From: a virus
Lineage: Duplodnaviria > Heunggongvirae > Uroviricota > Caudoviricetes
IMG/VR virus record: IMGVR_UViG_2737471848_000025
Reading direction: 5' to 3' (one strand)
Length of the DNA stretch: 4,135 bases
Part shown: one piece after another, positions 265-935 of the stretch
Position numbering within the stretch: the stretch's first letter is position 1
How the letters are laid out: every line of letters begins with the position of its first letter
Notes under the pieces: generated by a model
Seen by the model: the letters and a program-made list of their open reading frames with translations, nothing else
Databases searched by the model: none
Told to the model about the DNA's origin: nothing
Program-made: the position numbers and the translations under genes

Positions 265-428
265 GAGGACTTGCATACAATCCCGGCATTCTTCCAGCAG
301 AAATGATTATTCGCCAACGCGTAAAGCCAATGCCATCGAGAGAGGAATTGCTTAAGAGAAATTCTTTTCCTTCAGTGAATCAAAACAAATATCTGAATGC
401 GATGTGGCGTAAAGGAGGCAAGCAGTGA
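261..428 (+). CDS. Small hypothetical protein, 55 aa, basic ([55 protein letters not shown]); not in the ORF track
   Basis: ATG at 261 overlaps the upstream stop (ATGA). GGAGAG at 249-254 sits 6 nt upstream. Its TGA at 426-428 overlaps the GTG start of the next gene at 425. It fills the only apparent gap in an otherwise contiguous operon. Confidence 0.4.
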
Positions 429-490
429 GCGAAATTAACTATAAAGAACTGCGCGAGGCGGCGAAACAGGCAACGCAAGATGAATGGGTA
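411..490 (+). repeat. Copy 1 of a duplicated SD + start + N-terminal-codon cassette of the Ea22-like genes
   Basis: Hand alignment of 411-490 against 856-935 gives about 57 of 80 identical positions, and about 25 of the first 30 (AAGGAGGCA..CAGTGAGC.AAATTAA). Confidence 0.6.
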
Positions 491-883
491 GCATATATTT
501 TGCCGGGCCATAACGGCATTTATCCTGCGCGCACGTCTGAGGGTAGGCATTGCGGATACTTTATTGACTGGCCTGGTACTGATGGACAGAGGAACGCTAG
601 TGCCAATGCCCGTTATATCGCGGCTATCCCACCAAAAGTTGCGCTGGACCTCCTAGGCGAAATTAAGCGCCTGGAGGACAAAAATATTGATGCCATGTGC
701 CAAATTGCAGAGCTGGAGAGCAATCGCGCGGCGCTGGCGGCGGAGCATGGTATTCAGATTGCAATAAATGAACTGCTTGCTCTGGCCCCGCGTCTGGATA
801 AACGAGCGGTGGATGCACTCTCTGTGGCTGTGGAGCACCTGTGTAAACTGATTAAGAAGGAGGCAGTCAGTGAGCAAAATTAA
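425..883 (+). CDS. Ead/Ea22-like protein, short paralog (152 aa), GTG start
   Basis: N-terminus [17 protein letters not shown] and the internal block [20 protein letters not shown] match the conserved N-terminal module I recognise from Ead/Ea22-like proteins of lambdoid prophages. AAGGAGG at 412-418 lies 6 nt upstream of GTG 425. The first in-frame ATG is about 90 codons downstream, so GTG is the likely start. Confidence 0.8.
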
Positions 884-935
884 TTACCAGGCACTGCGTG
901 AGGCGGCAGAGAAAGCAACGTGGGGAGACTGGGAC
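856..935 (+). repeat. Copy 2 of the same cassette; it also supplies the last codons and stop of the upstream paralog
   Basis: Same alignment as copy 1. The upstream gene reads into this copy in a different frame and terminates at TAA 881-883. Confidence 0.6.

Follow-up and report, generated by a model that had tools for sequence, protein, structure and literature searches.

A repeated gene-start block in two tandem Ead/Ea22-family genes of a lambdoid prophage: a conserved family 5′ end and probably one of several exchange sites

We analyzed a stretch of 4,135 nucleotides of viral DNA (IMG/VR record IMGVR_UViG_2737471848_000025; hereafter the window, with positions counted from its first letter), in which two genes of the Ead/Ea22 family stand in tandem and begin with similar copies of one block of sequence, here called the cassette. 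The window matches, at 100% identity, a lambdoid prophage of Escherichia coli OkiPb01684 (NZ_AP042519.1; bovine faeces), and every gene in it lies on the plus strand. It is the early-left end of the prophage, equivalent to the exo-xis region of lambda. The features that matter for the argument are the following.

412 to 497, plus strand: cassette copy 1, with the Shine-Dalgarno (SD) sequence AAGGAGG at 412-418, the start codon GTG at 425 and codons 1-24 of the short Ea22-like gene.
425 to 883, plus strand: short Ead/Ea22-family gene, 152 amino acids, matching PF13935 over profile positions 1-90 of 139 (64.5 bits).
749 to 859, plus strand: tail module of the short gene, about 37 amino acids, predicted to be helical, standing in for the usual Ea22 C-terminal region.
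857 to 942, plus strand: cassette copy 2, with the SD sequence AAGGAGG at 857-863, GTG at 870 and codons 1-24 of the 224-amino-acid gene.
870 to 1544, plus strand: full-length Ead/Ea22-family gene, 224 amino acids, matching PF13935 over profile positions 1-139 of 139 (102.3 bits).

An earlier note on this DNA had described the SD, the GTG start and the first 20 or so codons as repeated at roughly 70% identity, and we find the repeat to be real. The best ungapped register pairs 412-497 with 857-942 at an offset of 445 and gives 63 identical positions out of 86 (73%), compared with at most 44 of 86 at other offsets within the window and maxima of 41-46 of 86 in 30 triplet shuffles. Each copy is made up of AAGGAGG, a 6-nucleotide spacer, the start GTG AGC and the remainder of the first 24 codons. 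As the earlier note also stated, the copies are most alike at their 5′ end: the first three 10-nucleotide blocks, which cover the SD, the start and the first codons, are identical at 8-9 of 10 positions, and directly upstream of 411 identity drops to 1 of 10, the random level, which gives the repeat a sharp left edge. A protein-guided alignment yields 71% identical nucleotides over codons 1-24, against 47% over the remaining 62 aligned codons, confirming that the rest of the two genes is far more diverged in nucleotides. The proteins are nevertheless still homologous (38% identity over about 100 amino acids, E 4e-12), so that their likeness at the protein level extends beyond the cassette.

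Both copies also encode the end of the gene before them. The bases of copy 1 supply the ending RKGGKQ of a DUF2737 gene, whose stop codon TGA (426-428) forms a GTGA overlap with the start at 425-428. Copy 2, read one base out of register (codons from 857), supplies KKEAVSEQN and the TAA at 881-883 of the short gene. The frame of the short open reading frame (ORF) is one base behind that of the second gene (its codons begin at 869, not 870), its stop lies 11 nucleotides past the GTG at 870, and the two ORFs overlap by 14 nucleotides only (870-883). The short gene does, then, end inside copy 2 in another frame, as had been claimed, though the claimed length of about ten codons was slightly generous: there are eight codons plus the stop.

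The tandem genes had been called Ea22-like from their letters alone, and profile scores agree, since both proteins exceed the gathering cut-off of 27 bits of PF13935 (Ead/Ea22-like, IPR025153). The repeated block is the family-wide 5′ end, composed of the SD AAGGAGG, GTG and then codons for MSxI(N/D)YxxLREAAxxAT, a motif carried by both window genes. In an alignment of 20 sequences, M1, Y6, L9, R10, A13, A16, T17 and W21 are invariant. The consensus of 89 unique Ea22-like starts reads AAAGGAGGCAACCA GTG AGC AAA ATT AAC TAT CAG GCA CTG CGT GAG GCG GCA, with conservation rising at about -16 and persisting to about +52, and window 425-488 has 80% identity with the first 64 nucleotides of lambda ea22. 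Of 5426 complete E. coli genomes, 2647 contain the 86-nucleotide block, which occurs 5227 times in all and up to 11 times per genome; the source chromosome holds it at 4 places. All 12 of the 12 best matches listed from these genomes sit under Ea22-like annotations, so the cassette recurs only as the start of the Ea22 family, and the recurrence at other kinds of gene start for which the earlier note had proposed a search did not appear.

For a wider comparison we used 85 loci (L001-L085), gathered by similarity to a window gene and phylogenetically non-independent, which contain 130 Ea22-like starts (102 GTG, 28 ATG). The way in which the upstream gene ends was classified from the longest open upstream frame, and because 18-24 starts are ambiguous between types, the counts are ranges. 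An upstream stop at +1, the TGA of GTGA or ATGA, is found at 68-92 of the 130 starts, with C-termini such as AQLRKGGNQ and AMWRKGGKQ, and a stop at +11, a TAA or TGA drawn from ATT AAY or ATT GAC, at 29-47 of them, with C-termini ending in SEQN, SEQD or SERN. Many different upstream C-termini and genes precede the same SD-GTG block. The ending of the short gene in copy 2 is consequently not the unique signature it had been taken for, since the +11 type also ends unrelated upstream genes (annotated by the Prokaryotic Genome Annotation Pipeline, PGAP, or present as an ORF), as at L003 2208-2507 and L077 2248-2514.

Within the window, the upstream stop overlaps or lies near the downstream start, and the SDs at 412-418 and 857-863 lie within the upstream ORF. 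The junctions at 261, 425 and 1541 are 4-nucleotide ATGA or GTGA overlaps, again with the SD inside the upstream ORF; at 1541, where the overlap is ATGA, the 224-amino-acid gene ends in GKGEAS, encoded by GGTAAAGGAGAGGCATCATGA, which is the SD of the next gene. More generally, the exo-xis protein endings RKGGNQ, RKGGKQ and KGEAS (window 411-428 and 1524-1544, and other loci) are encoded by the ribosome-binding site of the following gene, and the “K/RGE motif” noted in exo-xis proteins (PMC7093339) is one of these endings.

The RNA of the cassette folds no better than its shuffles (z of +0.7 for one copy and +0.4 for the other), and the window has no Rfam match at E <= 1 anywhere. With both copies unstructured and no Rfam match, we rejected an RNA element in the cassette. 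A programmed frameshift that would fuse the two Ea22 genes was rejected as well: no slippery heptanucleotide of the form X XXY YYZ is read in 857-883 (AAGGAGGCAGTCAGTGAGCAAAATTAA), a -1 slip misses the second frame, and the region is unstructured and unmatched in Rfam. The start region of the DUF551 gene that follows (1521-1616, plus strand) is different from the unstructured Ea22 starts in that a long hairpin pairs its SD (AAGGAGA) and AUG with downstream codons (-28.4 kcal/mol, z of -2.68, with 0 of 200 shuffles folding as well). This hairpin may force translation of the DUF551 gene to be coupled to that of the Ea22 gene before it.

When the window is aligned with related loci, as the earlier note had advised, identity is found to break at the edges of the cassette and inside it. 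At copy 2, Stx2a_1447 (L002) shows no similarity to the window before 857, where the SD begins. L003 and L014 are 95.6% and 98.5% identical to the window up to 910 and then unrelated, and L046, which has a different SD and an ATG start, is 95% identical to the window from 871 to 1169. Copy 2 thus resembles L014 on its left side and L046 on the other, which places a switch inside the common stretch 871-910. At copy 1, the joint lies at the SD in L033 and within the first five codons in L005; identity to relatives begins at 408-414 or at 424-433. It is lost after about codon 14-24 of the block. The rest of the 224-amino-acid gene is also a patchwork, with islands at 857-920 and 1057-1164 that are 89-97% identical in many prophages and a variable stretch at 920-1057. 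The second of these islands (about 108 nucleotides, encoding LLDERERNQQYIKRRDQENEDIALTVGKLRVEL) recurs at 93-97% identity in dozens of prophage loci that are otherwise unlike one another.

Our preferred reading, which we consider probable, is that the two copies are the family-defining 5′ ends of two anciently diverged Ead/Ea22-family genes, and that this 5′ end is one of several exchange sites. Genes of this kind typically follow one another in tandem within the exo-xis (early-left) operon, both in lambdoid prophages and in non-mobilizable plasmids of about 90 kb, and the block has three roles in them. It acts as the translation initiation region, with a strong SD, a 6-nucleotide spacer, GTG and an A/T-rich unstructured start; it codes for the conserved N-terminal helix of the family; and it forms one of a few short conserved islands within a hypervariable family, so that homologous recombination between related phages could resolve within it. 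From the apparent rule that the upstream ORF always ends inside the block, either at the TGA of GTGA (RKGGxQ endings) or, in the other frame, at a TAA or TGA of codons 4-5 (SEQN or SEQD endings), we infer that translation of neighboring genes is coupled. The recombinase would probably be a relaxed phage enzyme of the Erf/Red type. Rad52-like phage recombinases, including an Erf, build mosaics from short diverged homology and leave traces at the fragment borders (PMC3945230); the joint pattern seen here seems to fit such homology-driven exchange, and the prophage itself encodes an ERF-family protein. In the short gene, the helical tail module has taken the place of the variable C-terminal region; it is joined on its left at about 745-749, in the presumed coiled-coil region, and on its right at about 857-860, at the SD of the gene that follows.

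Several observations weigh against this reading. Raw BLAST alignment ends are as frequent at about 575, 628-647, 745-749, 1014-1057 and 1162-1175 as at the cassette, and since joints are equally frequent at these intragenic positions, the cassette is not privileged. In addition, a clustering of ends at the cassette is expected even without recombination, because BLAST alignments end where conservation ends, and the 85 loci, sharing ancestry and selected for their similarity to the window, do not count as independent cases. These points are what would be expected if the block were conserved solely through the needs of the protein N-terminus and of initiation, had no role in recombination, and the joints were simply the limits of similarity. 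The invariant residues, the consensus SD with its unstructured start region, the dual coding of the first 14 nucleotides and the lack of homogenization within loci agree with that alternative too. However, L014 and L046 match the window on opposite sides of copy 2 and carry unrelated sequence on their other sides, a three-way pattern that would hardly arise unless an exchange had been resolved within 871-910; L033 and L005 make the same case at copy 1. Moreover, codon uniformity at the conserved residues of the block is above that of the other conserved block of the family. We judge conservation alone to be an unlikely account of the locus. On our preferred reading, the cassette would be one of several conserved islands that serve as joints rather than a special gene-boundary device, and the boundary speciality that had been proposed is not upheld, given that the left joint of the tail replacement is intragenic (about 745-749) and that other joints are as frequent.

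The codon uniformity just mentioned deserves separate treatment. At residues conserved between the two window paralogs, codons are identical in 8 of 12 cases in the cassette and in 8 of 26 in the rest of their alignment; in the second conserved block (NAxxIAAxxPKxALxLL) they are identical in 2 of 13. Across 58 unique genes, two genes share a codon at a conserved residue with a probability of 0.77 in the N-terminal block, as against 0.55 in the second; the sample is small and non-independent, and the excess rests on few codons. ATT encodes Ile4 in 56 of 58 unique genes, which yields the out-of-frame TAA or TGA; Ala16 is without exception GCA (58 of 58), as Gln15 is CAG (30 of 30). Nucleotide conservation of the block therefore exceeds protein conservation in part. 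Possible causes of this synonymous uniformity are constraints on the initiation region, the dual coding of the first 14 nucleotides, or homogenization by exchange between phages, and the unstructured RNA of the cassette favors the first of these.

A bolder interpretation of the same data is that the block has been selected as a “universal adapter” for recombination and coupling, beyond its plain coding function. It would provide a stop in each of the two non-coding frames, namely the TGA in GTGA and the TAA or TGA formed by the near-invariant ATT at codon 4 together with AAY or GAC. Were this true, any upstream module, in either frame, would be cleanly terminated and coupled to the next gene, and the adapter role would maintain the synonymous uniformity (for example, GCA at Ala16). 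We hold this interpretation to be distinctly unlikely.

The short gene bears on how the pieces are exchanged. Among 5.8 billion proteins searched, some 60 clusters of 149-152 amino acids match the query over its full length, at 71-98% identity. The longer relatives of the first paralog that the earlier note had suggested looking for were found in the same search, as forms of 195-242 amino acids that share only residues 1 to about 105, at 83-96%. In an alignment, the short forms have one specific tail, paired with at least two different N-terminal variants. At the DNA level, 33 right ends of BLAST alignments fall at 741-760, and the 233-amino-acid version in L005 follows the window at about 91% identity over 433-745, after which the two are unrelated. 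In L004, by comparison, the same short gene forms a single unit with cassette 2 and the beginning of paralog 2.

The tail module also ends a different gene, an ORF at L077 4320-4832, whose N-terminal part (MTTITRE...LEAEPVAW) resembles that of the DUF551 gene of the window. Homology to L077 ends at about window 859, exactly at the start of the SD of cassette 2. Between the window and L077, the tail shows 0.96 synonymous changes per site (dS) and 0.13 non-synonymous ones (dN), giving a dN/dS of 0.14; for amino acids 1-104 of the short gene, dN/dS is 0.26-0.28 against L003 and L004. We also considered and rejected the idea that the tail is a frame-shifted version of the normal Ea22 C-terminus, as tblastx of 746-856 in all frames against the 85 loci returned only same-frame homologues and the L077 gene. 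An AlphaFold model of the short protein has helices at 70-123 and 126-151 at low confidence (mean pLDDT, the predicted local distance difference test, 67.5; pTM, the predicted template modeling score, 0.37), and on the question of a coiled coil it offers the long helix 70-123 at that mean pLDDT of only 67.5.

These results have to be set against the view that the short gene is a full-length Ea22 gene in decay, which has lost its 3′ part and remains open by chance up to a stop in the start region of its neighbor. PGAP annotates only 425-748, as a pseudogene (“incomplete; missing C-terminus”), and does the same in L003 (2494-2817) and L004 (2494-2814), so that three independent records in all carry the flag. 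The gene covers only positions 1-90 of the 139 of the PF13935 profile, its 195-242-amino-acid relatives have residues 1 to about 105 in common with it, and its tail differs from that of L004 by 8 non-synonymous changes and 1 synonymous change, which could mean relaxed constraint. But the length is held at 149-152 amino acids across the roughly 60 clusters, down to 71% identity and with two N-terminal variants; the N-terminal part is under selection by its dN/dS; the tail is read in frame and has its homologue at the C-terminal end of another gene, with the low dN/dS at high dS given above; and the stop at +11 is a regular junction type used by other genes too. A decaying remnant is thus very unlikely. 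The PGAP call is probably wrong, given an intact ORF of conserved length, the selection on its N-terminal part and a tail that is a real protein module. Judged from these comparisons, the short gene appears to be a stable, widespread and intact family variant, not a one-off truncation. Of the two fates that had been suggested for the 3′ part of an Ea22-type gene, replacement is what we find, with a different module as the tail, whereas truncation is contradicted by the clusters of constant length and by the dN/dS of 0.14 against L077.

Most DNA relatives of window 430-883 lie on non-mobilizable plasmids of about 87-101 kb. For the short variant, such plasmids make up 142 of 146 PLSDB records, from E. 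coli, Salmonella, Shigella and Klebsiella, and some records matching window 430-883 were deposited as Punavirus P1. The plasmids of about 87-101 kb are presumably phage-plasmids, and the spread of the short variant would then point to gene flow between lambdoid prophages and phage-plasmids.

Turning to the origin of the pair itself, two Ea22-like starts occur in 48 of the 85 loci; abutting tandem pairs have the 4-nucleotide GTGA overlap in about 30 cases and the 14-nucleotide overlap in 6. Among 19 unique tandem pairs, the mean identity of the two cassettes is 0.654 within a locus and 0.659 between loci, and the equality of these values speaks against local gene conversion; copy 1 compared with copy 1 across loci gives 0.82. 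The closest matches of each window copy lie elsewhere, at 95-99% for copy 1 (L033, L046) and 89-100% for copy 2, as opposed to 73% between the two. The copies therefore belong to two old, diverged paralog lineages that are commonly found in tandem, and the word “duplicated” is not supported if it is taken to mean something recent or local. The chance that the repeat arose from a recent local tandem duplication, or is kept alike by gene conversion between neighbors, is negligible: a direct repeat at 445-nucleotide spacing in a single operon, with codon identity higher in the cassette than elsewhere, is what such an origin would leave, but the copies are far closer to other elements than to each other, the proteins share only 38% identity, the equal identities within and between loci contradict it, and tandem pairs of these two lineages are widespread. 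As a separate observation, one plasmid (L003, 2494-3900) has three Ea22-like genes in a row, namely the 152-amino-acid short form, a 95-amino-acid gene and a 225-amino-acid gene, so that arrays of more than two exist. Altogether, what survives of the proposal that a conserved 5′ linker mediated module shuffling is that identity breaks in the cassette and that a 3′ module was replaced; local duplication, truncation and a special role of gene boundaries drop out.

The remaining genes of the window are as follows.

13 to 264, plus strand: DUF5405 gene.
261 to 428, plus strand: DUF2737 gene, with its last codons (KGGKQ and stop) inside the SD and start of cassette copy 1.
1541 to 2074, plus strand: DUF551 gene, with the N-terminal part MSTITRE...ASLEAEPVAW.
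2162 to 2404, plus strand: DUF4222 gene.
Between the DUF4222 gene and xis in gene order, plus strand: ORF of 44 amino acids.
2561 to 2815, plus strand: xis.
2849 to 4135, plus strand: int, followed by the host gene mlrA.

Upstream of the window, the same prophage carries N, ral, kil, a gene for an ERF-family recombinase and an IS100 insertion. The IS100 (IS21-family istA/istB; L001 3902-5703) lies in the early-left operon between an anti-RecBCD gene and the DUF5405 gene, and the left end of L001 holds an IS4 transposase and a frameshifted gene; the OkiPb01684 prophage may be defective. Within the window, an ORF of 28 codons (MMNWPEAFTAVGVAIAVAFILYSLFRWG) at 2071-2157 (plus strand) begins in the stop region of the DUF551 gene (GAAATGATGA). 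The PGAP annotation is empty over it (L001 7826-7912), and its predicted product looks like a single hydrophobic membrane helix.

How does this locus compare with known systems? Lambdoid phages reportedly carry conserved boundary “linker” sequences that act as recombination joints, as described by Susskind and Botstein in 1978, Juhala et al. in 2000 and, for HK620, Clark et al. in 2001. The window block resembles such linkers in being a short conserved stretch at a gene start, with unrelated flanks in different phages and changes of identity there. It differs from them in that it mostly codes for a conserved peptide and is not intergenic, in that joints are as common at intragenic islands, and in that the joints are known here from sequence alone. 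The resemblance to mosaics built by Rad52-like recombinases (PMC3945230) lies in the Erf-family recombinase encoded in the same prophage. As in translationally coupled phage genes with ATGA or GTGA overlaps, the junctions at 261, 425 and 1541 are 4-nucleotide overlaps; the 14-nucleotide type at 870 departs from them by placing the upstream stop in codons 4-5 of the downstream gene, and coupling there is likewise only presumed.

The closest comparison is lambda Ea22 and the PF13935 family. Published work describes ea22 as a mosaic of a common amino-terminal segment and coiled coil with unrelated C-terminal parts, DUF551 among them (PMC10834534; PMC7093339), and this layout (PMC10834534) matches the window as well as L085. 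In the latter (2501-3220), an Ea22 N-terminal part with coiled coil and a DUF551 domain form one protein of 239 amino acids, where the window has two genes (870-2074), and the fusion join lies near a common AELEAEPV/ASLEAEPVAW motif. The operon position upstream of xis and int is shared with lambda too. Unlike lambda, the window has two tandem members, the first with a helical tail of about 37 amino acids in place of any described C-terminal domain. The C-terminal regions of the window proteins do not align with other family members, and a phmmer search of both against all PDB chains gave no Ea22 match at E <= 1 and no relative of solved structure, which indicates that the lambda-type carboxy-terminal domain, solved by nuclear magnetic resonance (PMC10834534), is absent from them. 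In experiments with lambda and Shiga toxin (Stx) phages, the only ones from which this is known, Ea22 favors lysogeny over lytic growth (PMC7093339); by analogy, the window proteins would presumably be pro-lysogenic as well.

Since the mosaicism of Ea22 and its common N-terminal segment are already published, the block is an ordinary feature of a mosaic family, and the present understanding of phage mosaicism is unchanged. As far as could be seen, the 152-amino-acid tail-bearing variant and its distribution, the +11 junction and the tail held in common with a DUF551-type gene had not been described before. The results explain why exo-xis proteins share “K/RGE” or “RKGGNQ” endings, which are a by-product of the ribosome-binding site that serves the following gene, and correct a likely annotation error, in that the 152-amino-acid “pseudogene” flagged by PGAP looks like a maintained gene. 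The locus is an example of how interchangeable pieces, joined at short conserved islands, make up the hypervariable Ea22 family in lambdoid and Stx prophages.

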